A model generated the notes under the pieces. It was given only the letters and a program-made list of their open reading frames with translations. It ran no database searches and was not told the DNA's origin. A stretch of DNA of 51,433 bases from Polyangia bacterium (GTDB taxonomy: Bacteria; Myxococcota_A; Polyangia; HGW-17; JAJRWW01), in assembly GCA_034004785.1 (NCBI GenBank), contig JAVEWA010000001.1, forward strand, positions 1-51,433, given 5' to 3'. The translations under genes and the position numbers were made by a program. The stretch's first letter is position 1; every line of letters starts with the position of its first letter. This document shows, one piece after another, positions 23,461 to 43,295 of the stretch.

Positions 23461-24834
23461 TTGAGTGGTCAGCATGTGCTCGTGGTTGACGATGAGCCCG
23501 GGGTCCGGGAAACCCTGGGCCTTACCTTGCGCAAGAACGGCTACGAGGTGAGCCTTGCCTCCACGGGCGAGGAGGCCATCGATATCCTGAGGGCCGTCCC
23601 CGTCAAGGTAGTGCTCTCGGATCTCCGCATGCCGGGAATGGGCGGAGAGGCGCTCCTCGACCGCATCATAGCCGAGTGGCCGGAGGTCACGGTCATACTC
23701 ATGTCGGCCTATGGCTCCGAGGAAGACGCCATCGACTATATCAAGAAGGGTGCCTACGACTATCTTTCAAAACCCATCATGCGCCTCTCCGACGTGGTAC
23801 TGCTCCTGCGCAAGGCCGAGGAGCGGGAGAGGCTCAAGGCCGAGAACCGGGCGCTGCGCAAGGCCCTCGGCAAGGAAGTGGGCTTCGCCAACTTCGTGGG
23901 GCGGTCGGCGGCCATGCAGCGCGTCTTCGATACCATCCGCAAGATCGCCGAGTACAAGACCACCGTGCTCATAACCGGGGAGTCCGGCACTGGCAAGGAG
24001 CTCGTAGCCCGCGCGCTGCACGAGCAGAGCGGCAGGCAGAACGCCGGTTTCGTGGCCGTGAACTGCGGGGCCATCCCCGAGCACCTGCTCGAGTCCGAGC
24101 TTTTCGGTCACAGGCGCGGCGCCTTCACCGATGCTTCCCGGGACAAGAAGGGCCTCTTCGAAGAGGCGGATAGGGGGACCATCTTTCTGGACGAGATCGG
24201 CGAGCTGCCCCTCGGCCTGCAGGTGAAGCTCCTGAGGGCGCTGCAGGAGGAGCAGATCAGGCGGGTGGGAGACAACCACGACAGGCAGCTCGACGTAAGG
24301 GTAGTGGCCGCCACGGTTCGCGACCTGGGCGCAGACGTCCAGACCGGGCGGTTCAGAGAGGATCTCTACTACAGGCTGAACGTCTTCGGGGTGCATCTGC
24401 CTCCCCTCAGGGAGCGACTGGATGACATCCCGGCTTTGGTCGAGCACTTCGTGGAGAGGGTCAACCACAGGCTCGGCAGGAGCATCCAGAGGGTCGAGCC
24501 GGAGGCGTTGAAGCTCCTCGTGGCCTACTCTTGGCCAGGCAACGTGAGGGAGCTCGAGAACACCGTGGAGCATGCGGCGGTTCTTTGTGATGGAGACGAG
24601 ATCTCCGTTCGGGATCTGCCTGCGAGGTTCCAGGGAACCGCACCGGAGGCCCCGACCGTGAAGGAGGACGGGGACCTCTCCATTAAGAAGGCCACCAGGC
24701 GGATAGAGCGGGACCTCATCGCGAGGGCCCTCGGGCGTACCGGAGGCAATCGAACCAACGCAGCCAAGCTGCTGGAGATAAGCCACCGTGCCTTGCTGTA
24801 CAAAATCAAGGAGTATGACCTGGGAGGTGGCTGA
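23461..24834 (+). CDS. Sigma54-dependent response regulator (NtrC/PilR family enhancer-binding protein)
   Basis: The receiver domain is VLVVDDEPGVRETL…VLSDLRMPGMGG. The AAA+ sigma54-interaction domain has GESGTGKELVARALH, ESELFGHRRGAFTDA (a GAFTGA variant) and FLDEIGELP. The C-terminus is a Fis-type HTH (NRTNAAKLLEISHRALLYKIKEY). The start is uncertain: TTG 23461 or GTG 23476. Confidence 0.9.
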   Translation: MSGQHVLVVDDEPGVRETLGLTLRKNGYEVSLASTGEEAIDILRAVPVKVVLSDLRMPGMGGEALLDRIIAEWPEVTVILMSAYGSEEDAIDYIKKGAYDYLSKPIMRLSDVVLLLRKAEERERLKAENRALRKALGKEVGFANFVGRSAAMQRVFDTIRKIAEYKTTVLITGESGTGKELVARALHEQSGRQNAGFVAVNCGAIPEHLLESELFGHRRGAFTDASRDKKGLFEEADRGTIFLDEIGELPLGLQVKLLRALQEEQIRRVGDNHDRQLDVRVVAATVRDLGADVQTGRFREDLYYRLNVFGVHLPPLRERLDDIPALVEHFVERVNHRLGRSIQRVEPEALKLLVAYSWPGNVRELENTVEHAAVLCDGDEISVRDLPARFQGTAPEAPTVKEDGDLSIKKATRRIERDLIARALGRTGGNRTNAAKLLEISHRALLYKIKEYDLGGG

Positions 24835-24913: not shown

Positions 24914-25039
24914 GTAGGCGATGGTAGTTCCAAGTAACACATGCCGGCGCTCGGGTCCCTCGAGGCCCCGGGCTTGGCACAGGCGCCCTGCACGAGCGCG
25001 GGCCTCCTTTGGCGGGGAGTGGCCCAATCGAGGAGCTCC

Positions 25040-26095
25040 ATGTCCGTGAACTGCGTCGGGCTTGACATCGGCAGCACCTCCGTGAAGGTCGTGCAGCTGC
25101 GCGAGGGCAAAAAAACCATAGAACTCACGAGCTTCGGGATCGAGCCGCTGGCGCCGCAGTCCATCGTGGACGGTTCGATTATGAACCAGAGCGCGGTTGT
25201 GGACTCCATCCGCAGCGTCTTCGCGCGTCTCAGGATCCGCGAAAAGAGGGTGGCCATAGCGGTGGGCGGGCATTCGGTGATCATCAAGAAGATCGCCGTG
25301 CCACAGATGACCGAGGGGGAGCTGAAGGAGCAGATTCGCTGGGAAGCCGAGCACCATGTCCCCTTCGATCCCCAGGACGTACAGATCGATTACCAGGTGC
25401 TTAGCCAGGAGAACGCTCAAGGCCAGATGGATCTCCTTCTGGTGGCTGCGAAGAACGAGCTCCTGAACGACTATGCCGCGGTGGTGAGGGATGCTCAGCT
25501 CAAGCCAGTGGTGATCGACCTCGCCGCCTTCGCTGTGCAGAACACCTTCGAAAGGAACTACGGCTTCCACCCCGAGGACACCATCGCCCTGATCAACGTC
25601 GGAGCGTCCCTTTCCACCATCAGCATCGTGACCGGGGGCGCCACGAACTTCACGAGAGAGGTGACCATAGGGGGCAACGCCTTCACCGAGGAGATCCAGA
25701 AGCAGCTCGGCGTGGGTTTCGAAGAGGCCGAGGCTTACAAGCTCGGTGCGGTGAACCCAGGCGCAGGGTCAGTGGTGCCTGGGGATGTCGAGCGGCAGCT
25801 CCAGCGGGTATCCGAGATGATGGCCGGAGAGTTCCAGCGCTCCCTGGACTTCTACCTGGCTACCACCGCGGGCTCCAGCCTGTCCAAGATCTACCTGAGC
25901 GGTGGATCGGCCCAGGTCTCGTCCTTGCGGCGTGCGGTGGCTGCAAAGAGCAGGCTGGAGGTGGACGTGATGGATCCATTCTTGAGCGTCAAGGTGGATC
26001 AGAGCCGCTTCGACATGCCCTACCTCAGGGCACAGGCGCCACTCGCGGTGGTGGCCTTCGGGCTGGCTCTGAGACAACCGGGAGATAGCATCTGA
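25040..26095 (+). CDS. pilM: Type IV pilus assembly protein PilM (actin-like ATPase fold)
   Basis: ATG 25040 has an AGGAG RBS and gives MSVNCVGLDIGSTSVKVVQLREGKK…, the typical PilM N-terminus. pilN, pilO, pilP and pilQ follow. The longest ORF start (24941) adds a non-homologous extension. Confidence 0.9.
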   Translation: MSVNCVGLDIGSTSVKVVQLREGKKTIELTSFGIEPLAPQSIVDGSIMNQSAVVDSIRSVFARLRIREKRVAIAVGGHSVIIKKIAVPQMTEGELKEQIRWEAEHHVPFDPQDVQIDYQVLSQENAQGQMDLLLVAAKNELLNDYAAVVRDAQLKPVVIDLAAFAVQNTFERNYGFHPEDTIALINVGASLSTISIVTGGATNFTREVTIGGNAFTEEIQKQLGVGFEEAEAYKLGAVNPGAGSVVPGDVERQLQRVSEMMAGEFQRSLDFYLATTAGSSLSKIYLSGGSAQVSSLRRAVAAKSRLEVDVMDPFLSVKVDQSRFDMPYLRAQAPLAVVAFGLALRQPGDSI

Positions 26096-26757
26096 TGATC
26101 CGCATCAACCTCCTCCCGTACAAGGAATCCACGCTGCGCCAGTGGGGGCAGCGCCAGGTGGTGATCTACGCGGTCATCATGCTCGTGTCGGTGGTGGCCA
26201 TGGCCATCCTGGCCCGTCCTTCCATCGACTACAACGCCCTCCGGGTATCCAAGGAGAAGGAACGCAAGGCCGAGGAGGCCGAGATCGCACGCATTGGGAG
26301 CCAGGTGATCTGCGACCGTGATGACCTGAACAGGAAGATCAAGGCCGAGCAGCGCAAGTACCGAACGGTGGAAAAACTCATCACCGAGCGTCAGAATCCC
26401 AAGCAGGTGCTGAGGGAGCTCTCGCGCATCCTGTCCGAGGCCTGGGGGCCGACCATCAAGCAGAGCTTCGCGGGCAAGGACAAGAGGGCTCTTTACAACC
26501 AGAACTGGGACCCGACCGGGGTTTGGATCACCTCCTTTGCAGAGACCTCCTCTCCAGACTCGCCCGCTCGTACGGTGCGAATCCAGGGAGGCGCCCTTGC
26601 CGCCGACGATGTGGCCGAGTTCTGGCGGCGGCTCCAGGTGTCGGCCTACTTCTACAACGTGGACCTCGAGCGCTTCAGCAAGGTCAAGGAGATGCACTCG
26701 ACGAGCGGGTCGGGTCAGTTCCTCTCCTTTTCCATTGTGTCAGGCGTGAAGTACTGA
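26095..26757 (+). CDS. pilN: Type IV pilus assembly protein PilN
   Basis: The N-terminus MIRINLLPYKE is the canonical PilN motif that binds PilM. It has a single TM (VVIYAVIMLVSVVAMAIL). The start overlaps the pilM stop by 1 nt. Confidence 0.9.
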   Translation: MIRINLLPYKESTLRQWGQRQVVIYAVIMLVSVVAMAILARPSIDYNALRVSKEKERKAEEAEIARIGSQVICDRDDLNRKIKAEQRKYRTVEKLITERQNPKQVLRELSRILSEAWGPTIKQSFAGKDKRALYNQNWDPTGVWITSFAETSSPDSPARTVRIQGGALAADDVAEFWRRLQVSAYFYNVDLERFSKVKEMHSTSGSGQFLSFSIVSGVKY

Positions 26758-26775: not shown

Positions 26776-27411
26776 ATGCACAAGTTTTTCGAGTCGATCG
26801 CCAAGCTCTCCCTCCTGCTGAGGATCCTGATCCTGGTGGGCTCGGTGGGGCTGGTGGTGGCAGGGTTCTTGCTTAAGGCGAGCATGGGCGCCGCCGATCC
26901 GAAGGCTGCCTACCACAAGGAGCTCGCCAACCTGAGGAGGGCTCAGCAGGAGCGCGCCGAGGTCACCAGAGCCAAGGCAGAGGAGAAGCAGCAGTGTGAA
27001 GAGCTCGGGGTCAAGCTCAAGAAAGCGAAGGAAAAGAAGAAGGCCTTTCGCGGCATGCTCCCCGACGACCCTGAGCTCTCCATGCTCATCAAGGACATCA
27101 AGGCCAAGCTCAGCGGCCTCACGCTGGTGGAGTATGCGAGGCTCCCAGAGGTGACCGAGCCGATCTATGCAAAGATCCCGCTAGACATTACGGTGGAAGG
27201 GTCATTTCACCAGCTCCTGAAGTTCCTTCATGAGATCAGCATCCTGCCCCGCATCATCAAGGTGAGCGGGATCAAGCTGCTGGATCCCAAGCGGTCCGAG
27301 GGGAGGTGGGCTCTGAGGGTCGGTTTCAGAGTGTCCACCTTCAGATACTTGAGCGGCGCAGAGCAGCGCAGAGCCGCCAGGGCCGCCGCAGAGAAGAAGG
27401 GGAAGAAGTAA
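26776..27411 (+). CDS. pilO: Type IV pilus assembly protein PilO
   Basis: A GAGGAGG RBS is present. It has a single N-terminal TM (LLLRILILVGSVGLVVAGFLL), a coiled-coil segment and a C-terminal alpha/beta domain. Its position between pilN and pilP supports the call. Confidence 0.85.
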   Translation: MHKFFESIAKLSLLLRILILVGSVGLVVAGFLLKASMGAADPKAAYHKELANLRRAQQERAEVTRAKAEEKQQCEELGVKLKKAKEKKKAFRGMLPDDPELSMLIKDIKAKLSGLTLVEYARLPEVTEPIYAKIPLDITVEGSFHQLLKFLHEISILPRIIKVSGIKLLDPKRSEGRWALRVGFRVSTFRYLSGAEQRRAARAAAEKKGKK

Positions 27412-28223
27412 TGAACAGGGTCATCCGCAGCCTTCCCCTGTCATTGCTGTTTGTGAGCCCAGGCATGGATTCGGCCGGGTCCCGGCTCGGAGCGCCGTTG
27501 CCCCGCGGGATCTGTGTCCTGTTTGCCGCCTGGGTCGCCGTCGCGGCCGGGTGCGGCAAGGAGGACTTCAAGAGGACCAGCAAGCGGGGACTCCCCGAGG
27601 ACCCCATGGCCGCGAACCTCAAGGATGTGGGTAAGCCCTCCGTGGAGGTGATCGCGGAGAAAGCCGAGAAACAGGAGGCCTCGGAGAAGAAACGGCGTCG
27701 CGCTTCGAAGGATGCGAAGGAAGACCTGGAGCTGCCGAAGGTAGAGGAGTTCACGGAGCGAGACTTCGTCGAGAACGAGCAGGAGAGCCGCGATCCCTTC
27801 CGCAACCCTCTCATGAAGGAGGCGGCCAAATTGCCCGTGGAGGTGATCCAACCGGGAGACGTCGTTTTTCTGAAGGACTACTCCCTCGCGGAGCTCAGGG
27901 TCGATGGGATAGTCGGCGGCGCCCGTCGCTATGCCATGGTGCTCGATCCTCGAACGGGTCGGACGACCATCCTGCAGAAGCGTGACCGGATCGCCAAGGA
28001 GAGGGCGCTGATCTTCGAGGTCAACCAGGATCACCTCTTGGTCCTCGTGCCTCGTCTGAAGCCTGGCAAGGAGGATCCTTTCGAGCGGAGGACCCTCTAT
28101 GTGGATGAGCAGCGCAAGATGTTGGACATCGGCAGTGAAGCCCTCCGGCCCGATGAAACCGGGATCCGGTATTCCTCGCCCCGGCGCAGAAGCCAAGGGG
28201 CCGAGCGGACCAAGGAGCCTTGA
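27411..28223 (+). CDS. pilP: Type IV pilus assembly lipoprotein PilP
   Basis: ATG 27411 overlaps the pilO stop by 1 nt. The lipobox is AAWVAVAAGC. A charged linker is followed by a C-terminal beta domain (…LAELRVDGIVGGARRYAMVLDPRTGRTTILQKRDRI…). It lies immediately before pilQ. Confidence 0.8.
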   Translation: MNRVIRSLPLSLLFVSPGMDSAGSRLGAPLPRGICVLFAAWVAVAAGCGKEDFKRTSKRGLPEDPMAANLKDVGKPSVEVIAEKAEKQEASEKKRRRASKDAKEDLELPKVEEFTERDFVENEQESRDPFRNPLMKEAAKLPVEVIQPGDVVFLKDYSLAELRVDGIVGGARRYAMVLDPRTGRTTILQKRDRIAKERALIFEVNQDHLLVLVPRLKPGKEDPFERRTLYVDEQRKMLDIGSEALRPDETGIRYSSPRRRSQGAERTKEP

Positions 28224-28224
28224 T

Positions 28225-31200
28225 ATGAGGTATCCGACTCGAGAAAAGATCACCGTCATCGGAGTCGTGCTTCTGGCGTCGCTTGCCTCCGGGGCCGCCC
28301 GGGCGAGCCAGGGCAACATGAACAAGGTGACGCGGATCTCCCACCAGGAGGCTGGTGGGATCACCACCGTGACGATCCAGGGAGATCGGACACCCACCTT
28401 CACCGTATACAAGCTCGAGCGGCCCAGGCGCCTTGTTGTGGATCTCTCAAACACCACTGTGGTGGGCTACGATGACCCCCTGGAGGTCGAGACCTGGGCC
28501 GTTGGCCTGTTGACGGTGAGCCGTTTCGTGGACAGCCGCGCGGTCATAGCGAGAGTCGTCATCGGCTTCCGTCGTCAGGCAAACTACCAGGTGAAGGCTA
28601 CCGGCACAAAGGTCGTCGTCGTAATCACGCCGCTCGCCTTACCGAGTGCCGCCGATGCTCCGGCTGTGGCTCCCAGGGGATCGTCCTCGACGGAGATTGA
28701 GGGGCTGCGAAAAGACGCCAAGCGGCTCGAGGCCGAAGCGCTCGTGCGGAAAGAGAAGGCCGAGCGCTTGGCGAAAGAGGCAGAGGCTACGGTCCTTAGG
28801 GCGCGCTCCCTTGCTGGCAAGACCCGGAAAGAGGCGATGGCCGAGGCCGAGCGTCAGCGTCAAATTGCCCGGGCCGCACTCGAGCAGGCCCAAGCCCTGA
28901 GGCTCCGCGCCCAGGCTCAGCTTCAGGCCGCTGAGCGAGCTGCTGCCCAGACCAGGCAGGCAGCGCTGGCCTATGCAGTCAGGCTCAAGGCCGAGGCGGA
29001 GTCCTTGCGGACACAGGCCGACGCTCAGAAGCAGGCCGCTGCGCGCGCCCAGGAGGAGGCCCGTGTGGCGCTGAGAGCGGCAGAGAGCCAGGCTGACGCG
29101 ACCCGGTCAGCGGCGCTCAAGGGGGCGAGAAAGCTACAGGAGAACGCGACTCGCCTCCAGGCGACGGCCGAGGCCAGCCTTCGCGAGGCCAGCTCCCGCG
29201 AGAAGGAGGTGCAGCGTCTCCTCGCCCAGGCGCGAAGTCAGCTCGAGGCCGCCAAGGCCGAGGCCGAGGCCACGCGTTCGAGAGCTAGGGAACAGGCCGC
29301 GGCCCTCAAGGAGGCAGCCGAGGCCAAGGCGAGCGCAACCTGGCAGGAGGCGTTGAAGAAGGCTCAGACCCTGGAAGCTGCTGCGCGCCGGGAGGCGGAG
29401 GAAGCTCAGGCCGAGGCATTGAGGAAGGCCCGTGCTCTCGAGTCCGCAGCAAGGGAGAGGGCGGCAGGCTACCTCGAGGCAGCGAAGGGGAGATTGTCCG
29501 AGGCCCAGGTGGAAGCGACCCGGCTTGCCTCGGAAGCCGAGGCAGCCCGGCGTCTTCTGGACAGTGCCTCGTCCCAGGTGCAGGCCGCGCGGCAGGCTGC
29601 GTCGGTGGCCAACGAGCAGGCGGAGGCGGCACGGCGTCAGGCAGAGGCGGCGCGCAAGAACGCTGCCGTCTTGGTGGCCGATGCTCGACGTCAGGAGGCG
29701 GAGGTGAGACGCTCCGCGGCGAAGGCCACGGCGGAAGCCAAGGCCGAGGTGGATCAGGCCAGAGCCAAGGCCCTGGCAGCCGATGCGGCGGCCCGCCGTC
29801 TCGAGGTAATTGCCAAGCAACACCGAGCCAGAAAGGCCGAGGCGAGTAGGCAGGCGGATCAGGCCAAGTCTCAGGCTGCCCGGGCCCAGGCCAAGGCCCA
29901 GGCCGCCGAGCGCGCTCTGGAGGTAGCCGAGGCGTCGAGGAAGGTGGCTCTGGCGGAGGTGGATCGGCTGCGATCCGAAGCCGACCGGTATCGGACATTG
30001 GTGGGACGCGCAAGGCAGGAGATTGCCTCGCTGAGGCAGGCTCGCGAGGACATGAAGAGCGAGCTGGCCAGGCTCAGGCAGCAGGCGAGCGCGGCTCAAG
30101 CCGCCCTACGGCAGGCGAAGACGCAGGCGGCCAGGGCCCAGGGCGAGGCTGCCCTCTATGGCCAGCTCGCGAAGCGTCAGAAGCAGATGGAGGCGGAGAT
30201 CGACACGGTGAAGGCCCAGCTAGCCGCCGCAAGGGAAGGGCTCCGCGTCGCGAAGGACTCGAGGCGCCAGGAGGAGGCCAGGCAGGCCCTCGCGAAGGCT
30301 GCACGGCAACAGACTGAGCTGCAGCTCCGTCAGCTCGAGCTCGCCAAGGATAGAGTTGCAGCAAGCAAGCGTCTGCTCGAGGGTCAGGTGGAGGCCCTCG
30401 CCGCCAGGCACCGCGCGGAGCAGGAGGCTCAGGGTCTCGCAGAGAAGAGGAGAGTGGCGCTCGAGCGTGCGGAGCGAGAGGCTCGCGAGAGGAAGGTCGA
30501 GGCCGAACGCTTGGCTCGAAAAGAGCGGGAGCGGGCCGAGGCTCTCTTGCAATCAAGGCGCAGGTTGGAGTCATTGAACACTGCGCTTCGTGAGGCCGTG
30601 GCGGTCGAGGAGAGACGGAGGCAGGAGCTTGCGTCCGCCCTGGCCAGGCTCGAGGACATTCGAAGGACCGAGACCTCCGCCACCAAGGCGGACGCCCGAG
30701 GTCTCGAGCGCAGGATCATGGCTTTGAGGACGCGTGAGGCGAAGGAGTCCAAGCGCTTGGTGGGAATACGTGAGGCGGTGAAGAGCGCCGAGAAGGAGAC
30801 GAGCGAGCTGGACGGGTCGGCCAGAGAGGCGCAGCGGGCAGCCGAGAAAGCGCGTCTCCAGAAAGAGGAAGCCCTCCAGGCTGCTAAGGCCGCGCAGAAG
30901 GACCTCGGCGCCGCCCGCGCTGCTCTGGCCCTGGAGCGCGCCGCGTTGGAGAAGACGAGGGTGGAACGCGCTGCTCTGGCCAGAGCTGTGGGCAAGGCAG
31001 AGCAGGACCTCGCCGGTGCAAAGAAGGAAGTTGCGGCGCTTGTGCGCTCGAGAGCCAGCCAGGAGCAGGCCCTCGCCCTCGTGCAGAAGCGTTTGAAGAA
31101 AGAGCAGGAGGAGCTTGCCAGGGTTCGTGCCCACTCCGAGGGATCTTTCGCCAAGGCCCGCAAGGAGACGGCCGAGGCTCAGGATCGGCTTGCGGCGTTG

Positions 31201-33528
31201 AAGGGCCAGGTAGAGGCGATGAAGGCTCAGGCGACCGAGGCTCAGGCCGCTCGTGATCGAGCCCGACGCGAGCTCGAGGAAGCCAGGCATGCCGCGTCCC
31301 AGAGGCGCCACGAGAACAGGGCCTCGACCGCGCAGAAGGAGGCCGAAGCGGCTCGTCTGAAGGCCCAGCTCGAGGAGGTTCGTCGTAAGGAGAAGGAGGC
31401 TGCGGCTCGACTGGAGGCGCGGCTCGAAGCGGTGCGGAGCCAGGAGAGGGCCATGGAGAAGAGCCTCGCTGCCAAGCGGCGTCTCTCCAAGGAAGAGGCC
31501 AGACGTCTCGAAGCGGAGCTGAAGGTGCGCCGCGCGGCGCTGGAGGCCGAGCTCGCAGCCGAGCGCCGCAGGGTCAAGGAGCGTATCAGCGCGCTGAGGG
31601 CCAAGGAGACAGCCGCCAAGGAACTCGCGGCCCCCAAGGCAGCCGGGTCGAGGACGGCTTCATCCAGGGGCAAGGCTCGGGCCGCCAAAGGTGGTAGGAC
31701 GCTCTCCCAGGTGACCCAGGTGCAGTTCGTGGACGGAGTGTGGGCGCATCGGATCGTAGTGGACGTGAAGGGCCCAATTGTCCACGAGATCACCCGCGCG
31801 GGGCGCAGCAGCCTGACAGTGACCGTGGCGCGCGCGAGCATTCCCAGGAGCCTCGAGCGGAGCCTCGACGTGTCCGAGATCGACGGCCCCGTGCGGCTCG
31901 TTTCATCCCTCAGATCCCCGACCACTCAGGGCTCGGTGGATCTGGTGGTGGATCTGCGCCGGGAAGCCAAGTACCGCCTTTCTTCATCGCCCGGCAAGCT
32001 CTACATCGACGTCTGGAAGGACAAGGCAGAGGTGGCCAGAGCCAGGGCCAAGCGCGGGGAGCCCGCTGCTCCCCTCGCCCGGGCAGTGGACGTAGCTGCT
32101 GCCCGCGTCGCGGCGTACAGTGCGCCGGTTGGACCGGCCTCCGCGGCTTCCGCCGCGCAGCCGCTCAAGGCCTACAGAGGCTACCGTTACGGTCTCGGCG
32201 GGCGCTACACCGGGCCCAAGGTGGATATGGACTTCAACAATGCCGACATCCACAACGTGCTTCGTCTGATTGGCAGGGTCTGGAACAAGAACATCGTTGT
32301 CGCGGGCAAGGTGGACGGAAAGGTAACCATCCGCCTCCAGCGGGTAGAAGTGGACAGGGCGCTCGAGGTGATCCTCAAGACGCTTCAGCTAGGCATGGTG
32401 TGGCATGCGGCGAATCTCATCCGGGTGTCTCCGGAGAGCGACATCAAGGCCGAGCTCGACGCCATCGCAGCCGCCCAGGAGAAGCTGCGCACGGTGGAGC
32501 CGGTTTACACCCGCGTGATCCCCGTCAACTTCGCAAAGGCACAGGATGTGGCCGCCCGCATCGAGAAGAACATGCTCTCCAAGCGTGGGAAGGTGTCCCA
32601 CGATGAACGAACCAACACCATCATCGTCAGGGACGTCTCGGCCAACTTGCGCGCCATCATGTCCCTCACCAAGGCCCTCGACACGGCTACGCCACAGGTG
32701 CTGGTGGAGGCTCGGATCGTGGAGGCCTTCGACAACTTCACCCAGGAGATCGGAATCCAGTGGGGAGGCAACGTGCTCGCCGGCTCACAGACGGGTTACC
32801 CGACGGGCCTTCTCTTCCCCTCGACGGTGGGGCTGCAGGGAGGCACCGTTGACGCCGACACCAACACTAGCGGTTTGCAGGGCTCGGGTGTGACCAATCC
32901 AGGCTTCGCGGTGAACCTGCCCGCGGCGGTCGGCTCCGGGAGCGGCGGTGCCCTCGGGCTAACCCTGGGTAGCGTGACGGGAGCCTTCAACGTCAACCTC
33001 CGCCTGTCGGCAATGGAGGCCACCGGCCAGGTGCGAATCGTATCATCTCCAAAGGTTACGGTTCTCGACAACGTGGAGGCCAAGATCGAGCAGGGATTCA
33101 AGATCCCCTACTCCCAGACCTCCGCGCAGGGCACGACCACCATATTCCAGGACGCGAAGCTTTCTCTGAAGGTCAAGCCCCACGTCACCAACGACGGCAA
33201 CGTTGTCATGAAGATAGAGGTTGCCAATAGCCGGCCGAGCACTGTTGTCACGGGTTCCAGGGGTGAGGCCTCTATTCTGGAGAAGCTCGCCAACACCGAG
33301 ATGATGATCAAGGACGGCGACACGGCGGTCATCGGCGGGATCTTCACACGGAGCACCGAGGTGAACTTCTCCAAGGTTCCCTGGTTCGCCGAGATCCCCG
33401 TAATAGGCTGGCTCTTCAAGAAGAGGATCAAGAAGGACGAGCGGAGCGAGATGCTCATCTTCATAACTCCCCGTATCGTAACACCACGCTCCTCGAATAT
33501 ACTGAAGGACGAGGAGGTGCAGCGATGA
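28225..33528 (+). CDS. pilQ: Type IV pilus secretin PilQ, giant form (1767 aa) with a ~1000-aa coiled-coil-like insert between two AMIN-like domains
   Basis: ATG 28225 lies 2 nt after the pilP stop and gives the signal peptide MRYPTREKITVIGVVLLASLASGAARA. AMIN-like domain 1 is VTRISHQEAGGITTVTIQGDRTPTFTVYKLERPRRLVVDLSNT. An Ala/Glu/Arg/Lys/Gln-rich segment follows. AMIN-like domain 2 is VTQVQFVDGVWAHRIVVDVKG…VDLVVDLRREAKYRLSSSPGKLYIDVW. The secretin N domains are VDMDFNNADIHNVLRLIG… and RVIPVNFAKAQDVAARIE…ERTNTIIVRDV. The secretin core is VSSPKVTVLDNVEAKIEQG…VPWFAEIPVIGWLFKK…MLIFITPRIV. Confidence 0.9.
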   Translation: MRYPTREKITVIGVVLLASLASGAARASQGNMNKVTRISHQEAGGITTVTIQGDRTPTFTVYKLERPRRLVVDLSNTTVVGYDDPLEVETWAVGLLTVSRFVDSRAVIARVVIGFRRQANYQVKATGTKVVVVITPLALPSAADAPAVAPRGSSSTEIEGLRKDAKRLEAEALVRKEKAERLAKEAEATVLRARSLAGKTRKEAMAEAERQRQIARAALEQAQALRLRAQAQLQAAERAAAQTRQAALAYAVRLKAEAESLRTQADAQKQAAARAQEEARVALRAAESQADATRSAALKGARKLQENATRLQATAEASLREASSREKEVQRLLAQARSQLEAAKAEAEATRSRAREQAAALKEAAEAKASATWQEALKKAQTLEAAARREAEEAQAEALRKARALESAARERAAGYLEAAKGRLSEAQVEATRLASEAEAARRLLDSASSQVQAARQAASVANEQAEAARRQAEAARKNAAVLVADARRQEAEVRRSAAKATAEAKAEVDQARAKALAADAAARRLEVIAKQHRARKAEASRQADQAKSQAARAQAKAQAAERALEVAEASRKVALAEVDRLRSEADRYRTLVGRARQEIASLRQAREDMKSELARLRQQASAAQAALRQAKTQAARAQGEAALYGQLAKRQKQMEAEIDTVKAQLAAAREGLRVAKDSRRQEEARQALAKAARQQTELQLRQLELAKDRVAASKRLLEGQVEALAARHRAEQEAQGLAEKRRVALERAEREARERKVEAERLARKERERAEALLQSRRRLESLNTALREAVAVEERRRQELASALARLEDIRRTETSATKADARGLERRIMALRTREAKESKRLVGIREAVKSAEKETSELDGSAREAQRAAEKARLQKEEALQAAKAAQKDLGAARAALALERAALEKTRVERAALARAVGKAEQDLAGAKKEVAALVRSRASQEQALALVQKRLKKEQEELARVRAHSEGSFAKARKETAEAQDRLAALKGQVEAMKAQATEAQAARDRARRELEEARHAASQRRHENRASTAQKEAEAARLKAQLEEVRRKEKEAAARLEARLEAVRSQERAMEKSLAAKRRLSKEEARRLEAELKVRRAALEAELAAERRRVKERISALRAKETAAKELAAPKAAGSRTASSRGKARAAKGGRTLSQVTQVQFVDGVWAHRIVVDVKGPIVHEITRAGRSSLTVTVARASIPRSLERSLDVSEIDGPVRLVSSLRSPTTQGSVDLVVDLRREAKYRLSSSPGKLYIDVWKDKAEVARARAKRGEPAAPLARAVDVAAARVAAYSAPVGPASAASAAQPLKAYRGYRYGLGGRYTGPKVDMDFNNADIHNVLRLIGRVWNKNIVVAGKVDGKVTIRLQRVEVDRALEVILKTLQLGMVWHAANLIRVSPESDIKAELDAIAAAQEKLRTVEPVYTRVIPVNFAKAQDVAARIEKNMLSKRGKVSHDERTNTIIVRDVSANLRAIMSLTKALDTATPQVLVEARIVEAFDNFTQEIGIQWGGNVLAGSQTGYPTGLLFPSTVGLQGGTVDADTNTSGLQGSGVTNPGFAVNLPAAVGSGSGGALGLTLGSVTGAFNVNLRLSAMEATGQVRIVSSPKVTVLDNVEAKIEQGFKIPYSQTSAQGTTTIFQDAKLSLKVKPHVTNDGNVVMKIEVANSRPSTVVTGSRGEASILEKLANTEMMIKDGDTAVIGGIFTRSTEVNFSKVPWFAEIPVIGWLFKKRIKKDERSEMLIFITPRIVTPRSSNILKDEEVQR

Positions 33529-34244
33529 GGAACCAACTAGTGGGATGGTGCGCGATCCTCGTGGCGTGGCTCGTCGGGATCGGAGCCTGCGTGGAGAATC
33601 GTCAATCGGTGACGATCCTGCAGATGCAGGCTGCGGACGACAACTGCATGGTGTCGAGCGGTCAGTCGAGCAACACCGTCCAGATGGGGAGGTTGGACAT
33701 TTGGAACGCAGCGAATGTCCCAACCGAGTACTATCTGTTCCCTCTGGTGAAGAACAACCTCCTGTCCACAGCTTCGACTGATGACGTCGAGCGGAACCAG
33801 ATCGAGATCGTCGAGGCCGTTGTCGAGCTGGATCTCGGAGCCTCGGGCGGAACGGCCAAGTTCAACTACCCCGCCTTCATCACCTTGTCGCCAGGCGAGT
33901 CGGCTGCGGTGCAGGTCCGGGCCATCCCATCTTCGGTCTCGGAGGTGTTGGCGGGCAGGCTCACGAGCCCAGGGGACTCCCAGTGGGTGCGGATCGGAGT
34001 CCGGCTCCGGTACCAGCATGGCGAGTACGAAAAGGAGACCCACCAAGTGGATTTCCCCGTTCTGGTGGGACGCTACATCCTGTTCCCATCCCCCGAGGAG
34101 ACTCCAGGGTGCGACTCGGGCCTCGTGCCTGAGCAGGTCAGGGAGGGCAATGGCTGCAACATCTACCAGGACAAGCCAATTGACTGCTGCACCATGGGTG
34201 GAAACCTGATCTGCCCTGCAGAGGACATGAGCACCCTGGAGTAG
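33525..34244 (+). CDS. Hypothetical lipoprotein translationally coupled to pilQ
   Basis: The ATG overlaps the pilQ stop (ATGA at 33525-33528). Signal peptide plus lipobox: MRNQLVGWCAILVAWLVGIGAC. The C-terminal Cys cluster is …PGCDSG…GNGCNIYQDKPIDCCTMGGNLICP. Confidence 0.8.
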   Translation: MRNQLVGWCAILVAWLVGIGACVENRQSVTILQMQAADDNCMVSSGQSSNTVQMGRLDIWNAANVPTEYYLFPLVKNNLLSTASTDDVERNQIEIVEAVVELDLGASGGTAKFNYPAFITLSPGESAAVQVRAIPSSVSEVLAGRLTSPGDSQWVRIGVRLRYQHGEYEKETHQVDFPVLVGRYILFPSPEETPGCDSGLVPEQVREGNGCNIYQDKPIDCCTMGGNLICPAEDMSTLE

Positions 34245-34777: not shown

Positions 34778-37693
34778 GTGGCGATCAATAAAAATAAGGT
34801 GATCGCCGCTGCCCAGAAGTTTGTGCAGAAGGGGCAGCTCGACAAGGCAATTCGCGAGTATCTCCGGGTAGTGGAAGAGGAACCGGGCGACGTTCGCACC
34901 TGGCTGAAGATTGGGGATCTCCAGCTCAAGGTCGGCGCGTCCGGGGATGCCACCGCGACCTATCTCAAGGTGGCCAACACCTACTCCCAAGAGGGATTTT
35001 ATCTCAAGGCGGTGGCGGTATACAAGCAGGTCCTCCGGCTTCAACCTGAATTCGTCGAGGTGCACTTCAAGCTGGCGGCCCTCAACAAGCAGCTAGGTCT
35101 CATCTCCGACGCCCGCAGGCAGCTCGAGACGGCATTTCAGCTCCTCGTGAAGGCCGGACGGACAGAGGAGTCCCACCAGGTCCTCTCCGCAATGGTGGAG
35201 ATGGACCCCGAGAACGTCGCGGCAAGGATTCGGCTGGCCGAGGTCCATTCGAAGGAAAAACGCGTCGAGGAGGCGATCGCCGAGTTCACCCGTGCAGCCG
35301 ACGTCCTCCGTAGCTCGGGAAGAACAGACGATTTTTTAAGAGTGGCCGAGCGCATCATCTGGCACAAGGCCGACAACATCCCCTTCATCAAGGAGGTCGC
35401 CTCGCTCTACCTGGAGCGCCAGGATCCCCGCCGAGCTCTCCAGAAGCTCCAAGTCTGCTACAAGGCCGATGAGAAAGACACCGAGACCATGGCGCTCTTG
35501 GTGAAGGCCTTCATCGCTCTCGAACAGCCGGAGAAGGCAGTTACCATCCTGAAGGTTCTCGCCTCTGTCCACGAGGAGAAGGGGGAGCTCGACCAGAGGG
35601 ATGAGGTGTTCCGCCGCATTCTCATGCTAGCGCCCGATGACAGAGAGGCGAGGGACGCGCTCAGGGAAGCTACCGGAGTCTCGGCGCTGGTAGTCCCTAC
35701 CGATGCGTACGAGCCGCGTCCCGTGCCCGCTCCTGCCCCGGCTCCATTGCAGCCGGAGCCACCCGTAGAGGAGGAGATCGAGGAGATCGAGGAGATCGCG
35801 GAGATCGACGCCTTTGAAGAGCTCGGTGAAGAGGACGAGACCGCAAGCCAGATTGCGACGCTCTACGGAGAGGCAGAGGTTTACGAGAAGTTTGGTCTGC
35901 TGCAGGAGGCCGTTGACCAGCTCGAGCGAGCGAAGCAGCTAGAGCCGGATAACCTCGAGACACAGCTTCGCCTCAAGGAGCTATTTGTAAAGCTCGACCG
36001 AACGGACGACGCGGTCGCCGCCATCCTGGTTGTCGCGGGCTCCAAGATGGACTCCGAACCCGAGGAGGCGGCGGCGCTCTTGAGGCAAGCCCTCGAGCTT
36101 GACTCCAACAATCGGCGCGCCCGGGACATGCTCGCAGACTTGCCAGGAGCCGAGCCGGCGCCGCGTCCGCGGCGGAGCAGCATGCATCTGGCAAGCCGCT
36201 GGCAGCGGGCGGAGTCGGACTCCCAGATCATGGATGACATCGCCGCTGCGGCCTTCGCCGAGCAGCCGGTGTTTGCCACCGAGGAGATAGACATAGACGC
36301 CCTCGAGCGCGATCTGGAGGACAGGGGGCCCTTCCCCTCAGGTCGTTTTCGCCCAGTGATGACCGAGGCAGAGGGGAAGAATCAGCGCCACCCGGACGGC
36401 GCCCCGGATCCATACGGGGATGCCGGGCTCGAGTACCTGGAGGAGGGAGTAGGGCCGAGCGTCCTCGGGACCGAGGACGAGCTGGAGGTGGACTTCAGCA
36501 GCCTGGCGGAAGATCTCGAGGGTCTGGAACCCCAAGAATATCGAAGGGCCGGCGATCCGGACTTTCAATCGGGGCCCGGGATGGACACGGCCATCGTGTC
36601 ACATGACAGGTTCGCTCACATCGCTGCCGGGCTGGATGGTGACGATGACGACGAGCCCCTGGATCTTGGGAGAGAGCCATCGGGCGTAGGGATGGGGCCC
36701 GAAGACCTGTTTCAGGACGAGCTGCGGCAACTGGAGGAGGCAGAACAGCTGGTAGCGAGCATTACCAGCGACAAGCTGCAGGCGCTCGAGCGGCCTGGCC
36801 AGCCTGCGCGGGCTTCGGGGAGCCCAGGGCCGGATTATGGGCAGGATCTGCAAGATGAGGCCCAGGAAGTCATGCTGCCGCCCGAGGAATCGGATCGGCC
36901 ACGGGCCGCCCAGGAGGTTCCAGAAGCTCTCGCGGAGGAGATGGCAGAGGCGGATTTCTTCATCAACCAGGGACTCCTCGAGGACGCCATTGGGATGCTT
37001 CGAGACCTGATCGACGAGCACGGAGAGCATCCGGCCCTCATGGCGAAGATCGCTGGCCTCACCGCGCAGCTCCACGGAGAGGAGGAGGGAGATGGAGTAT
37101 TCGACGATCTCGACGTCGAGGGGGCCTTCAGTGGCCTCTCAGAGGATGGGAGCCAGGAAGATCATGCAGACGCCGCTCCCGCTTTCAGGCCCCACGTACC
37201 AACGAAGGAAGCCGACGCCTTCTCACAGTTCAAGGAGGGTGTTGCGCGGCAGGTAGGCGAGGACGATGCGGACACTCACTTCGACGTCGGGATCGCATAT
37301 CGTGAGATGGGCATGCTAAGAGACGCGATAAACGAGTTTCGCACTGCCATGAGGGCTCACAACGAGGTCCAGTGTCATCTGATGATCGCTTTGTGTCACC
37401 GTGATCTGGGGGAGCAGAGCGAGGCGATCAACATCTACAAGAAGGCGCTATACTGCGAGAGGATTACCGAGGCCGAGCAGGTTGACATCTACTACCAGAT
37501 GGGGCTCACCTACGAATCGCTCAGTGACCCCCAAGAGGCACTCTACTACTACGAGAAGGTGTCACGGATGGCCAGCTCCTACCGAGACGTTGTCGAACGG
37601 CGCGACGCGCTGAAATCCGCGCTCGACAGCTCCAGGGCGGCAGGCCAGAAGGGAGTCGATTCGGCCTTCGACGATCTGATCGATCAATCCTAG
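34778..37693 (+). CDS. Large TPR protein: N-terminal TPR block, long acidic disordered middle, C-terminal TPR block
   Basis: The GTG start lies 9 nt after the Roadblock gene stop. The N-terminal ~290 aa are paralogous to the 18524..19999 protein. The middle is Glu/Asp-rich (…EEEIEEIEEIAEIDAFEELGEEDE…). The C-terminal TPRs are …FDVGIAYREMGMLRDAINEFRTAM…AINIYKKALY…ALYYYEKV…. Confidence 0.85.
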   Translation: MAINKNKVIAAAQKFVQKGQLDKAIREYLRVVEEEPGDVRTWLKIGDLQLKVGASGDATATYLKVANTYSQEGFYLKAVAVYKQVLRLQPEFVEVHFKLAALNKQLGLISDARRQLETAFQLLVKAGRTEESHQVLSAMVEMDPENVAARIRLAEVHSKEKRVEEAIAEFTRAADVLRSSGRTDDFLRVAERIIWHKADNIPFIKEVASLYLERQDPRRALQKLQVCYKADEKDTETMALLVKAFIALEQPEKAVTILKVLASVHEEKGELDQRDEVFRRILMLAPDDREARDALREATGVSALVVPTDAYEPRPVPAPAPAPLQPEPPVEEEIEEIEEIAEIDAFEELGEEDETASQIATLYGEAEVYEKFGLLQEAVDQLERAKQLEPDNLETQLRLKELFVKLDRTDDAVAAILVVAGSKMDSEPEEAAALLRQALELDSNNRRARDMLADLPGAEPAPRPRRSSMHLASRWQRAESDSQIMDDIAAAAFAEQPVFATEEIDIDALERDLEDRGPFPSGRFRPVMTEAEGKNQRHPDGAPDPYGDAGLEYLEEGVGPSVLGTEDELEVDFSSLAEDLEGLEPQEYRRAGDPDFQSGPGMDTAIVSHDRFAHIAAGLDGDDDDEPLDLGREPSGVGMGPEDLFQDELRQLEEAEQLVASITSDKLQALERPGQPARASGSPGPDYGQDLQDEAQEVMLPPEESDRPRAAQEVPEALAEEMAEADFFINQGLLEDAIGMLRDLIDEHGEHPALMAKIAGLTAQLHGEEEGDGVFDDLDVEGAFSGLSEDGSQEDHADAAPAFRPHVPTKEADAFSQFKEGVARQVGEDDADTHFDVGIAYREMGMLRDAINEFRTAMRAHNEVQCHLMIALCHRDLGEQSEAINIYKKALYCERITEAEQVDIYYQMGLTYESLSDPQEALYYYEKVSRMASSYRDVVERRDALKSALDSSRAAGQKGVDSAFDDLIDQS

Positions 37694-42976: not shown

Positions 42977-43013
42977 CTGGCCTCCAGGGTCTCTGTTCGA
43001 CTGAGCTGAGGAG

Positions 43014-43295
43014 CTACTTGAACCAGCGCAGTCCTGGATCACGCGAGGTGCGGCTGATCTGGTCGAGGAAGCTCTTTTGCAGTCTCAGCAGTCGATCGAA
43101 GAGGGGCGACTTCAAGGCCCTCGTATAGACGGTCGCGGGTTTGTTGATCTCCCCATCGATGAGGAGCTCGTCGAAGTCGTAGAAACGGGTTCTGTCCCCT
43201 TCCGCCTTGGGTGCGGAGGCTGCCTCGGGTGGATTCGCCGCTCCTAGCAGGACGAGAAGCGCAAACGAAATCATCGCGCAGGTCCAGCGGGTCAT
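43014..43295 (-). CDS. Small secreted protein at the GltF/NfsF position of the cluster
   Basis: 93 aa with signal peptide MTRWTCAMISFALLVLLGAA, then …RFYDFDELLIDGEINKPATVY…. The ATG overlaps the upstream stop (ATGA at 43292-43295). The functional label rests on gene order only. Confidence 0.65.
   Translation of the reverse strand: MTRWTCAMISFALLVLLGAANPPEAASAPKAEGDRTRFYDFDELLIDGEINKPATVYTRALKSPLFDRLLRLQKSFLDQISRTSRDPGLRWFK

Follow-up and report, generated by a model that had tools for sequence, protein, structure and literature searches.

PilQ is the outer-membrane secretin of type IVa pilus (T4aP) systems, a heat-stable pore of 12 to 15 subunits through which the pilus passes. Few outer-membrane machines have been studied as thoroughly, and the current view of its AMIN domains is that of short-range peptidoglycan hooks that place the machine at the cell pole. 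In M. xanthus, the AMIN domains of PilQ bind peptidoglycan at the septum and the poles and drive recruitment to the poles (PMC10653833). The PilQ described here is encoded in a 51,433-nucleotide stretch of DNA, referred to below as the window, and shares with the canonical proteins of M. xanthus, P. aeruginosa, and N. meningitidis its position in pilMNOPQ, an N0-N1-secretin module, and N-terminal AMIN domains. The canonical proteins, however, have short and flexible linkers between their AMIN domains, whereas the window PilQ has a 984-aa coiled coil at this place and is about twice the usual length.

A 2008 note listed, for this bacterial group, an architecture in which AMIN is joined to a charged helix resembling TolA (PMC2572700), the only published mention that we found of AMIN joined to a long charged helix in these bacteria. 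That mention is a one-line architecture entry, kept apart from the PilQ architecture, and it does not place the helix inside PilQ between two AMIN domains or give lengths, heptad evidence, or a function. The likeness of the window insert to TolA is compositional only, with no TolA similarity in Pfam (E<=1), NCBIfam (whole protein), or PDB sequences.

A good functional analogue for how such a rod might work, though not a family to which this PilQ belongs, is provided by the SlpA/OmpM/Omp-alpha connectors of Deinococcus-Thermus, diderm Firmicutes, and Thermotogae, which combine an N-terminal wall-binding domain, a homo-oligomeric parallel coiled-coil stalk of lineage-variable length, and an outer-membrane anchor (PMC9388160, PMC10628300). 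Their wall-binding domain is SLH and their barrel a porin-type OMBB, whereas the window PilQ has AMIN and secretin domains and gives no Pfam match to SLH or OMBB. Their stalks measure tens of nanometers and stand perpendicular to the wall, matching the width of the periplasm; the window coil, in contrast, is 4-5 times any periplasm width, is separated from the pore by AMIN2, and has no homology to them. The PilQ of N. meningitidis itself carries a polymorphic N-terminal periplasmic region, the small basic repeat (SBR) region, that is basic, rich in Ala, Lys, and Gln, variable in length among strains, and built from a few tandem copies of an octameric unit (PMC2884949). The SBR is not a helical coiled coil, and the window insert differs from it in having neither proline nor tandem octapeptide repeats, TRF returning only trivial micro-repeats of 2-4 copies. 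The repeat unit of the SBR contains proline (PAKQQAAA).

Integrity of the pilQ Gene

The window pilQ (28225-33528; like all features given here, on the + strand) encodes 1767 aa plus a stop codon. Directly upstream lie pilM (24941-26095; Pfam PilM_2, E=1.9e-72), pilN (26095-26757; Pfam PilN, E=1.5e-9), and pilO (26776-27411; Pfam PilO, E=4.6e-22), followed by a pilP candidate (27411-28223) encoding a 270-aa lipoprotein with the lipobox VAAGC. The candidate has no match in Pfam or NCBIfam and was assigned by its position between pilO and pilQ, with a 270-aa orthologue at the equivalent place in a Logan contig (L001) from another sample; pilQ thus ends a pilM-pilN-pilO-pilP-pilQ operon. The whole protein scores 388.7 bits against the NCBIfam PilQ model TIGR02515 (cutoff 284.35), and the NCBIfam secretin models for GspD, SctC, MshL, and HofQ all fall below their own cutoffs on it.

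An earlier note on this DNA, made from the sequence, had described a single uninterrupted ORF of 1767 aa and held that it was not two genes, and both statements stand. The frame is open from 28099 to 33528 without an internal stop, and the ATG at 28225 lies 1 nt past the pilP stop, has an AAGGAG Shine-Dalgarno sequence 7 nt upstream, and agrees with the start called for P0121, the orthologue on L001. P0121 is a colinear protein of 1763 aa with 79% identity in a conserved gene order, and two further colinear orthologues, of 1726 and 1617 aa, are found on contigs from other samples. Because a syntenic contig from another sample encodes the colinear 1763-aa orthologue, the window pilQ is a genuine single gene, neither a mis-assembly nor two genes.

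The opposite view, which takes the giant ORF for an artefact of assembly or annotation produced by the fusion of two genes or by repeat mis-assembly, is extremely improbable. Some relatives in the databases are split within the coil or lack their N-terminal part up to a point inside it, for example L082 (476 + 915 aa), but the upstream ORF of L082 ends with the kind of arginine-rich tail that out-of-frame translation typically yields, and the name of its contig suggests a nanopore assembly. Apart from the orthologues on independent contigs, the artefact view is opposed by the sequence of the insert, which has a GC3 of 0.78 (0.75-0.84 in adjoining genes), a uniform codon-position GC profile, and, beyond the micro-repeats already mentioned, no tandem or direct DNA repeats able to collapse or expand it. 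The ORF also has only one signal peptide, and AMIN2 lacks its own start codon or RBS context.

Domain Organization of the Window PilQ

The window PilQ consists, in order, of a signal peptide, AMIN1, a 984-residue rod, AMIN2, N0, N1, and the secretin domain. Its N-terminus, MRYPTREK-ITVIGVVLLASLASGAARA followed by SQ, resembles a Sec signal peptide when judged by eye (putatively residues 1-27, 28225-28305, with cleavage after ARA), in keeping with the single signal peptide at the far N-terminus reported before. AMIN1 covers residues 34-134 (28324-28626) by our own HMM and 42-132 by Pfam (26.7 bits), and AMIN2 covers residues 1162-1263 (31708-32013) by our own HMM and 1175-1262 by Pfam (25.3 bits), each exceeding the Pfam AMIN cutoff of 20.5 bits when scanned alone. 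These are followed by the N0 domain (residues 1330-1392 by our own HMM, 32212-32400; Pfam type_II_gspD_N0, PF21305, 1335-1389, E=6.3e-9), the N1/N3 (Secretin_N) domain (residues 1429-1491, 32509-32697; Pfam PF03958, E=2e-13), and the Secretin C-domain (residues 1591-1753, 32995-33483; Pfam PF00263, 1596-1752, E=3.5e-44). Pfam and NCBIfam thereby confirm the proposed succession of AMIN, charged helical coiled-coil-like insert, AMIN, and conventional PilQ C-terminus. The insert had been placed at 28630-31710 and counted at ~1027 residues; this interval corresponds to residues 136-1162 and to the inter-AMIN gap, which is 1028 aa by our own AMIN HMM boundaries.

Within this gap, a Pro/Ala/Ser hinge (residues 135-152, 28627-28680), in which four of the insert's flanking prolines lie, leads into the heptad coiled-coil rod (residues 153-1136, 28681-31632; 984 aa, about 140 heptads), and a basic flexible hinge (residues 1137-1161, 31633-31707) connects the rod to AMIN2. 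In the comparison with P0121, the N-terminal hinge (residues 136-152) has 35% identity and a dN/dS of 0.29, and the C-terminal hinge (residues 1137-1160) has 37.5% identity and a dN/dS of 0.61; the dN/dS is 0.09 for AMIN1 and 0.045 for the Secretin C-domain.

The Insert Is a Coiled Coil

The rod contains zero prolines, an outcome with a chance of about 6e-25 at 5.5% Pro, and the insert is dominated by Ala (27%), Arg (15%), Glu (13%), Leu (9.5%), Gln (8%), and Lys (7%). Hydrophobic residues recur with a periodicity near 3.5 residues (Fourier peak 12.6, against a maximum of 9.4 in 300 shuffles), and the coiled-coil prediction called for in the earlier note gave a significant heptad register, with Viterbi z scores against shuffles of 5.1 for residues 153-540, 8.8 for 541-1136, and 10.6 overall. 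In this register, positions a and d are 60-80% Ala or Leu/Ile/Val/Met, position e is rich in Arg and Lys, and position g is rich in Glu. An AF2 model of residues 130-1270, computed from a single chain and a single sequence, has seven long helices of 46-205 residues; it was used for helix content only, and its hairpin topology and Foldseek matches (MCP, SMC) were set aside in view of its low confidence (pLDDT 59.7, pTM 0.33). Fully extended, 984 aa at 0.1485 nm each would reach about 146 nm, which agrees with the earlier remark that a helix of this size is far too long for the periplasm.

The rod is 73% identical to that of P0121, and the 981 aligned residues are free of indels except for 3 residues at ~1133, at the C-terminal end. 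The dN/dS of 0.18, obtained at a saturated dS of about 1.1, indicates that the insert evolves under purifying selection. A sub-block at residues ~540-1004 (29842-31236) is indel-free in 4/4 clade members in a four-way alignment and has the strongest heptad signal, with local periodicity power up to 12. It includes a conserved island at residues ~678-735 (30256-30429; DSRRQEEARQALAKAARQQTELQLRQLELAKDRV...), a clade-specific motif that starts at an AF2 helix break (676-678) and whose 40-residue bin 681-720 is 62% invariant among the 4 clade members, equal to the folded domains. Taken alone, the insert had as its best matches ATP-synt_B in Pfam (E=0.028) and lamin A/C in PDB sequences (E=0.009). 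Homology to TolA, SMC, lamin, and similar proteins was rejected because such matches are only generic coiled-coil noise.

A Widespread Class of Long-Linker PilQ Proteins

The window PilQ belongs to a widespread and undescribed class of long-linker PilQ proteins in Polyangia-type Myxococcota and Bradymonadales. The earlier note had proposed surveying PilQ proteins for the spread of the insert and the variation in its length, and the survey showed >150 database PilQs, from one myxobacterial branch, to have this design; ~140 were recovered with inter-AMIN linkers of 200-1399 residues, in Haliangiales, Kofleriaceae, Plesiocystis, Bradymonadales, and many MAGs. The sequenced isolate Plesiocystis pacifica SIR-1 has a PilQ of 1125 aa (WP_006976104.1 / EDM74732.1) with a 388-aa inter-AMIN linker, MAGs labelled Kofleriaceae range from 248 to 1051 aa, and three linkers (1053, 1168, and 1399 aa) are longer than that of the window. 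Short linkers of 14-33 aa occur in Polyangiaceae, Sandaracinaceae, and Labilithrix, and linkers of 33-93 aa in Archangium and Vitiosangium. Our literature searches found no paper describing the class. The earlier note had allowed that many characterised orthologues might already carry equivalent inserts; many orthologues do carry them, but none is characterised and we found no description.

Position, composition, and the tree suggest a single origin of the long linkers. A single origin is not claimed from sequence, however, because the inserts of other clades have no detectable homology to the window insert: a phmmer search with the insert against 1.84 billion representatives retrieved only P0121 and P0123. 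The range of linker lengths, 200-1399 aa between lineages and 248-1051 aa among the MAGs labelled Kofleriaceae, argues against a role as a fixed-distance ruler.

Heptad structure extends across the class, with z > 3 in 131/140 linkers of at least 200 aa. Across 45 disjoint close pairs, 106/281 indels are multiples of 7 (p=2.5e-22), or 106/206 when indels of 4 aa or more are considered, the commonest lengths being 7 (60 times) and 14 (28 times); the counts come from related sequences and are not independent events, although the use of disjoint pairs limits the effect of kinship. Indels in multiples of 7 likewise occur within the window clade, as seen in the four-way alignment, and non-heptad indels gather family-wide at the C-terminal hinge end of the linker. 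Charges show a corresponding order: the class-wide ratio of opposite to same charge at g(i)->e(i+5) is 3.2:1, the peak among heptad offsets, with 1.6-2.7 for g-e at the other heptad offsets and at most 1.1 for other i->i+5 register pairs, values that again derive from related sequences. The heptad-quantised indel spectrum is a clean evolutionary signature, which can serve in other proteins as well to separate true coiled coils from low-complexity spacers.

These patterns bear on whether the insert could be a single alpha-helix (SAH, ER/K-type) or a disordered low-complexity spacer, acting as an entropic tether or arising by neutral expansion, which we consider very unlikely. Its high charge and its enrichment in opposite charges at i,i+4 (z=4.2) would fit such a spacer, as would the lack of Pfam, NCBIfam, or PDB relatives and of sequence conservation beyond a narrow clade (2 matches among the 1.84 billion representatives). 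Against this, charged residues make up only 38% of the insert and there is a clear Ala/Leu stripe at a and d, whereas an ER/K SAH would consist largely of E, K, and R and all but lack a hydrophobic stripe. The low dN/dS and near absence of indels relative to P0121 at saturated dS, together with a conserved island invariant to the level of folded domains, speak against a neutral spacer. Indels in sevens are required by neither an SAH nor a disordered linker, and 21-nt DNA repeats that could drive slippage are absent from the window insert. The insert is a structured heptad coiled coil and not a disordered spacer; the term low-complexity, used in the earlier note, captures a charged helical stretch but undersells its heptad register, purifying selection, and change of length in heptad units.

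The linkers are also basic, with a net positive charge in 122/125 class members (2-AMIN, linker >=200 aa; median +2.7 per 100 aa) and a net charge of +61 in the window rod; the rods of the window-clade relatives P0122 and P0123 are strongly basic, at +19 to +24 per 100 aa. It is therefore conceivable, though improbable in our view, that charge gives the rod its function, as a basic polyanion-binding helical domain lying along glycan strands or binding DNA or another periplasmic polyanion. In N. meningitidis, the basic N-terminal SBR of PilQ has a part in DNA binding (PMC2884949), which would fit this reading. Most members of the class, however, are only slightly basic, helix-helix packing is indicated by the heptad core, the g-e' pairing, and the indels in heptad units, and DNA-uptake genes were not noticed in the window.

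Possible Arrangement and Role of the Rod

We propose, at about even chances, that in this long-linker T4aP PilQ paired parallel rods in the plane of the sacculus hold AMIN1 as a remote anchor. The linker between the peptidoglycan-binding AMIN domains, normally of ~27 residues, is here a heptad alpha-helical coiled coil with two short flexible hinges, and the rods of neighboring protomers may associate as parallel in-register homo-oligomers, for example as seven dimers in a 14-mer. Parallel in-register pairing would be the most likely arrangement because the protomers of a ring are all parallel and opposite charges peak at g(i)-e'(i+5). Since the rods, of up to ~146 nm, are too long for the periplasm, they would have to extend within the plane of the sacculus. 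The local anchor of the pore would be AMIN2, and AMIN1, at the far end of the rod, may be a remote and probably multivalent peptidoglycan anchor up to ~146 nm from it; we infer this function, probably that of a cell-wall anchor held at a distance by the rod. The arrangement would likely provide a wider wall-anchoring footprint, a larger capture radius for septal or polar peptidoglycan, or both, and the rod would affect the assembly site of the pilus machine and the transfer of retraction load to the wall.

The oligomeric state, orientation, and path of the rod are proposed from sequence statistics, and some observations run against parallel homo-oligomers. The g-e' signal is weak in the window protein (24 attractive and 13 repulsive pairs), whose rod carries the net charge given above. 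In the basic relatives, the attractive-to-repulsive ratio is 9:13 for P0122 and 14:14 for P0123, and the chains of a parallel homo-oligomer made of rods so basic would repel each other unless a polyanionic partner were present. Antiparallel coils, too, typically have an a/d core rich in Ala, and the AF2 monomer model, itself of low confidence (pLDDT 60, pTM 0.33), folds into hairpins matching MCP and SMC coils.

An intramolecular antiparallel coiled coil, with hairpins or bundles as in the arms of SMC, Rad50, and chemoreceptors, is the subject of a rival reading that we regard as unlikely but credible; AMIN1 and AMIN2 would then sit side by side, each protomer carrying a 35-75-nm stalk as a spacer or docking arm. 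The division of the AF2 monomer into 7 helices is consistent with this, and its best Foldseek matches were antiparallel hairpins, namely chemoreceptor (MCP) models 9a69/9a65 and the crystal structure 2ch7 (E=2e-4 to 1.6e-3) as well as the coils of MukB, SMC, and Rad50; yet with one chain and one sequence as its input, AF2 could bury the core only by folding back, and its confidence is low. The Ala-rich core of the insert recalls the 'Alacoil' type of antiparallel packing, which has such a core. A hairpin would keep the ancestral proximity of the two AMIN domains, and the deletions of 44 and 29 aa in P0122 and P0123, respectively, fall at the predicted H1-H2 turn (about residues 354-397). However, an acidic g, a basic e, and a charge peak at g(i)-e(i+5) are what parallel pairing would show, and the g-g' and e-e' contacts of an antiparallel coil would repel. 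A whole-length hairpin would also be expected to show mirror-compensated indels, of which we found none in close pairs; instead, close pairs differ by single uncompensated indels of 7 or 14 residues that are not mirrored in the opposite half, and the loss in P0123 is lopsided, the N-terminal half being shorter by about 140 residues and the C-terminal half by only about 20.

A bolder form of the parallel-rod proposal, which we consider rather unlikely, is that about seven parallel rods of up to ~146 nm radiate in the plane of the sacculus with AMIN1 clusters at their ends, a peptidoglycan-moored, cytoskeleton-like spider around every T4P pore that would set the placement and spacing of the machines and spread retraction force. 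If so, the largest homologue would have rods of more than 200 nm, the wall would take up retraction forces of >100 pN over a wide area, and Polyangia-type myxobacteria and Bradymonadales would possess a periplasmic structural element of a new kind that is specific to them.

This branch of gliding predators is large and of ecological importance, and between the two AMIN domains of its PilQ lie 30 to 200 heptads of coiled coil under selection, which leaves the textbook architecture of PilQ incomplete for it. The class opens to direct test the old question of how a machine pulling >100 pN is fastened to the wall and given its place on the cell, and it offers natural length variants from 200 to 1399 residues, including at least one in a sequenced isolate, Plesiocystis pacifica SIR-1.

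A Lipoprotein Gene Coupled to pilQ

The stop codon of pilQ overlaps, in the sequence ATGA, the start of a translationally coupled gene for a Cys-rich lipoprotein of 239 aa (33525-34244). This lipoprotein has no family match in Pfam or NCBIfam, and its AF2 model, from a 7-sequence alignment, has a pLDDT of 43. Among the 81 loci compared, its homologues are found only beside long-linker pilQ genes, and it is possibly an accessory factor, its membership being uncertain. Scans of the window for tRNAs and Rfam families found nothing, and a scan of contigs for near relatives of the window organism found none that was close, the best having 52% identity. By the similarity of PilM and PilQ, the window lineage appears to be Polyangia-like and to lie near Haliangiales/Kofleriaceae.

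A long-linker PilQ in a conventional operon

The pilQ gene lies in a reading frame (28099-33528, + strand) without a stop along its whole length, and its biologically sensible start is the ATG at 28225. This codon is 1 nt past the stop of the pilP candidate and 7 nt 3' of an AAGGAG Shine-Dalgarno sequence, yields a protein of 1767 aa, and was called independently in the closest orthologue. The genes pilM, pilN and pilO and the pilP candidate are located 5' of pilQ. Pfam and NCBIfam scans placed a first AMIN domain (AMIN1) at residues 42-132 and a second (AMIN2) at 1175-1262, each above the Pfam cutoff when scanned alone, with AMIN2 immediately N-terminal to N0 (1335-1389) and followed by Secretin_N (1429-1491) and Secretin (1596-1752). 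The whole protein scored 388.7 bits against TIGR02515 (PilQ subfamily; cutoff 284), and the open frame and these domains confirm the earlier note's account of one uninterrupted PilQ with an insert between two AMINs. The interval it singled out, 28630-31710, corresponds to residues 136-1162, the inter-AMIN gap. The core of the insert (residues 153-1136) contains zero prolines, with a chance probability of ~6e-25. Hinges of low conservation border it, one of Pro/Ala/Ser (135-152) and one basic (1137-1161). The core's composition is A 27%, R 15%, E 13%, L 9.5%, Q 8% and K 7%, and its GC3 of 0.78 is similar to that of the adjoining genes. The giant PilQ with a coiled-coil insert is real.

Both an assembly artefact and a pair of separate genes were rejected as explanations. 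No tandem or long direct repeats that assembly might collapse or expand occur in the insert DNA, whose codons are constrained (see below). A contig from a different sample (L001, Logan SRR22388267) has the same order of pilO, pilP, pilQ, 239-aa gene, TPR gene and methyltransferase, with a colinear pilQ ORF of 1763 aa at 79% identity, bearing out the claim that this is not two genes. Two more orthologues, of 1726 and 1617 aa, are also alignable across the insert.

Several long ORFs (227-321 aa) run antisense to the insert (29134-31925, - strand). They mirror the GC-rich Ala/Glu/Arg coding strand in Arg/Pro/Leu/Ser-rich frames, and are almost certainly not genes. At locus L082 (2574-6748), a frameshift inside the coil divides a long-linker pilQ into ORFs of 476 and 915 aa. 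The upstream ORF has an arginine-rich tail that is read out of frame, and the contig's name points to a nanopore assembly. The 915-aa ORF corresponds to database entry P0046, whose start falls inside the coil, and the "PilQ" entries P0023 and P0060, which also start inside the coil, may be similar gene-call or contig-end artefacts.

The earlier note set the protein against PilQs of roughly 700-900 aa; its length is indeed far above the usual, but it is not unique and has many long-linker relatives. When the query was limited to the C-terminal 608 residues, the hits were ordinary-length Polyangia PilQs at no more than 50% identity, and about a quarter of these already had 50 aa or more of charged helical sequence ahead of the last AMIN. 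The full protein matched 157 PilQs at E<1e-30, the best 120 of the 157 all being 1051-1906 aa long. We surveyed 241 proteins (240 database hits and the window protein) with our own HMMs for AMIN, N0 and secretin, and found two or more AMINs in 175, exactly two in 174 of these. Inter-AMIN gaps ranged from 21 to 1168 aa, the window protein's 1028 aa being the third longest, and the long ones are alike in composition (A 22-47%, R/K/E/Q abundant, Pro at most 4%). Long linkers were present at 14 of the 80 loci obtained in a scan of GTDB species representatives, in Haliangiales (705 and 743 aa), Kofleriaceae (248, 646 and 1051 aa), Bradymonadales (330 aa) and several MAGs, one with a 1399-aa linker in a PilQ of about 2136 aa. 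Named members of the class include Plesiocystis pacifica SIR-1 (WP_006976104.1, 1125 aa) and Haliangium sp. (WP_428261910.1, 1384 aa). Archangium and Vitiosangium PilQs have three AMINs and short linkers, and those of Polyangiaceae, Sandaracinaceae and Labilithrix have two AMINs ~27 aa apart. The window PilQ is one member of a large class visible in the databases, near the top of its length range and not the longest.

Neighbour joining on the sequence from N0 to the C-terminus gave a Polyangia-like clade filled throughout by long-linker proteins, with Bradymonadales at its base and the short-linker Polyangiaceae group nested within it. This topology, from a tree without support values, tentatively suggests that the long linker was gained early and later lost. 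Against 1.84 billion representatives, the sequence of the window insert matched nothing outside the narrow clade it belongs to, so the inserts either diverge fast between clades or arose more than once.

The PilQ secretin in its pil operon is itself conventional. We found no description of the long-linker class in the literature. The one published hint that we found is a line on an AMIN fused to a TolA-like charged helix, in the 2008 paper defining AMIN (PMC2572700); we found nothing in its sequence that ties the insert to TolA. Recent studies of PilQ AMINs and of the T4P genes of myxobacteria make no mention of long-linker PilQs. In meningococci, N-terminal PilQ has a short tandem array of an octameric unit, the "small basic repeats", which is linked to DNA binding (PMC2884949) and is comparable in position but different in kind. 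Such a PilQ as the window's would come as a surprise to specialists in pili or the cell envelope. For direct tests, the class has natural variants in length and includes at least one sequenced isolate.

Coiled-coil character and constraint

The strongest evidence for a coiled coil comes from indels. Across 45 disjoint close-relative pairs, 106 of 281 indels had lengths divisible by seven, where chance would give about 40 (p=2.5e-22), as did 106 of the 206 that span at least 4 aa; the commonest lengths were 7 (60 times) and 14 (28 times), and the window clade has the same pattern. The window insert has no 21-nt DNA repeats able to drive slippage, and neither a single alpha-helix nor a disordered linker would require the register to be kept. 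The window insert also shows hydrophobic periodicity near 3.5 residues above all shuffles, with peak strength at residues ~540-1136, and register-tracking Viterbi scores exceed shuffles by 5.1 SD (153-540), 8.8 SD (541-1136) and 10.6 SD (whole insert). Positions a/d are Ala/Leu, e is R/K-rich and g is E-rich; the AF2 model has seven helices of 46-205 residues each. Across the class, heptad z exceeds 3 in 131 of 140 linkers of at least 200 aa (median 7.5). Periodicity, register tracking and indels uphold the earlier note's "coiled-coil-like" insert, and a heptad coiled coil under selection, rather than a disordered spacer, is well supported.

In a codon alignment with P0121, the closest orthologue, 981 aligned insert residues are free of indels except for 3 residues at the C-terminal end, at saturated synonymous sites (dS about 1.1). 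dN/dS is 0.18 in the insert, 0.09 in AMIN1, 0.15 in AMIN2 and 0.045 in the secretin domain, and reaches 0.3-0.6 in the short hinges on either side of the insert. Purifying selection therefore acts on the sequence of the insert and, in this lineage, on its exact length. A 465-residue block (about 540-1004) has no indel in any of four window-clade members, and a conserved island at mid-rod (~678-735; 62% of the 40 residues in bin 681-720 invariant among the four) may be a docking or trigger site.

Orientation and possible function

How the rods pair is less settled, and an antiparallel fold-back of the insert into a hairpin is a serious rival to parallel rods. Class-wide, opposite charges outnumber like charges 3.2:1 at the canonical g(i)-e'(i+5) spacing, compared with 1.6-2.7:1 at other heptad offsets and at most 1.1:1 for every other i->i+5 register pair. 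Such a peak would be expected from parallel in-register pairing, an arrangement that would come naturally to adjacent protomers of the secretin ring. Close relatives are, moreover, separated by single uncompensated heptad indels, which self-compensate in a homo-oligomer and not in a hairpin. A hairpin would nevertheless suit the Ala-rich a/d core, and the AF2 monomer makes hairpins like chemoreceptor or SMC arms, though at low confidence and unavoidably for a single chain. Coils of the window clade also carry far more net positive charge than is usual (+6.6 to +23.8 per 100 aa; family median +2.7), and their g-e' signal is weak or absent. On balance, parallel, oligomeric rods are favoured over fold-back, with moderate support. 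Within the window clade, net charge per 100 aa is +6.6 for the window coil and +19 to +24 for P0123 and P0122 (Arg 19-23%, Glu 5-7%); the coil of P0001, an N-terminally truncated entry, also looks K/R-rich. Rods this basic would be mutually repulsive in a homo-oligomer, a hint of a polyanionic partner.

In M. xanthus, PilQ AMINs bind septal and polar peptidoglycan and are needed for polar recruitment and machine assembly (PMC10653833). We infer a function for the rod on this basis. Hinged at each end between two conserved AMINs, it would leave AMIN2, directly ahead of N0, as a local anchor for the pore and hold AMIN1 at its far end, up to ~146 nm away. The earlier note had the helix too long for the periplasm and folding back, lying along the wall or forming a scaffold; the length agrees, and a rod so far beyond the periplasm's width would have to run along the sacculus. 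This could give a machine under large retraction forces a far wider, multivalent wall-anchoring footprint. It could also, or instead, enlarge the radius of capture or set a spacing rule when machines assemble at the pole. The great variation in rod length between lineages argues against a fixed-distance ruler. The closest functional analogues are SlpA, OmpM and Omp-alpha, which join a wall-binding domain, a parallel coiled-coil stalk and an outer-membrane anchor (PMC9388160, PMC10628300); their stalk length is likewise lineage-variable, but they are perpendicular spacers with SLH domains and have no homology to the PilQ rod.

Neighbouring genes

Translationally coupled to pilQ through an ATGA overlap is a gene for a Cys-rich lipoprotein of 239 aa (33525-34244, +; lipobox IGAC), with six invariant mature Cys besides that of the lipobox. 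It matched no Pfam or NCBIfam family, and its AF2 model has a pLDDT of 43. Among 81 fetched loci, homologues occur only next to long-linker pilQ (L001, L044, L003, L022, L032 and L004), a co-occurrence that could reflect shared ancestry rather than function. The N-terminal ~400 residues of the 971-aa TPR protein that follows (34778-37693, +) hit the NCBIfam model for SgmX, a type IV pili formation protein, with E=1.9e-120 and a score under the full-length cutoff; the gene is kept 3' of pilQ in many Myxococcota loci, Archangium included. On the 5' side, the pilP candidate (27411-28223, +; 270 aa, lipobox VAAGC) matched no PilP model in Pfam or NCBIfam and is ~100 aa above typical PilP length because of a Lys/Glu-rich linker after the lipobox. 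An NtrC-type, sigma-54-dependent response regulator (23461-24834, +) lies just 5' of pilM in a PilR-like position, preceded further upstream by GAF-HD (20203-21432) and TPR (18524-19999) proteins. Four large TPR-repeat proteins of 1397 (with an N-terminal zinc-ribbon), 571, 1093 and 631 aa form a run at 38849-49622 on the minus strand.
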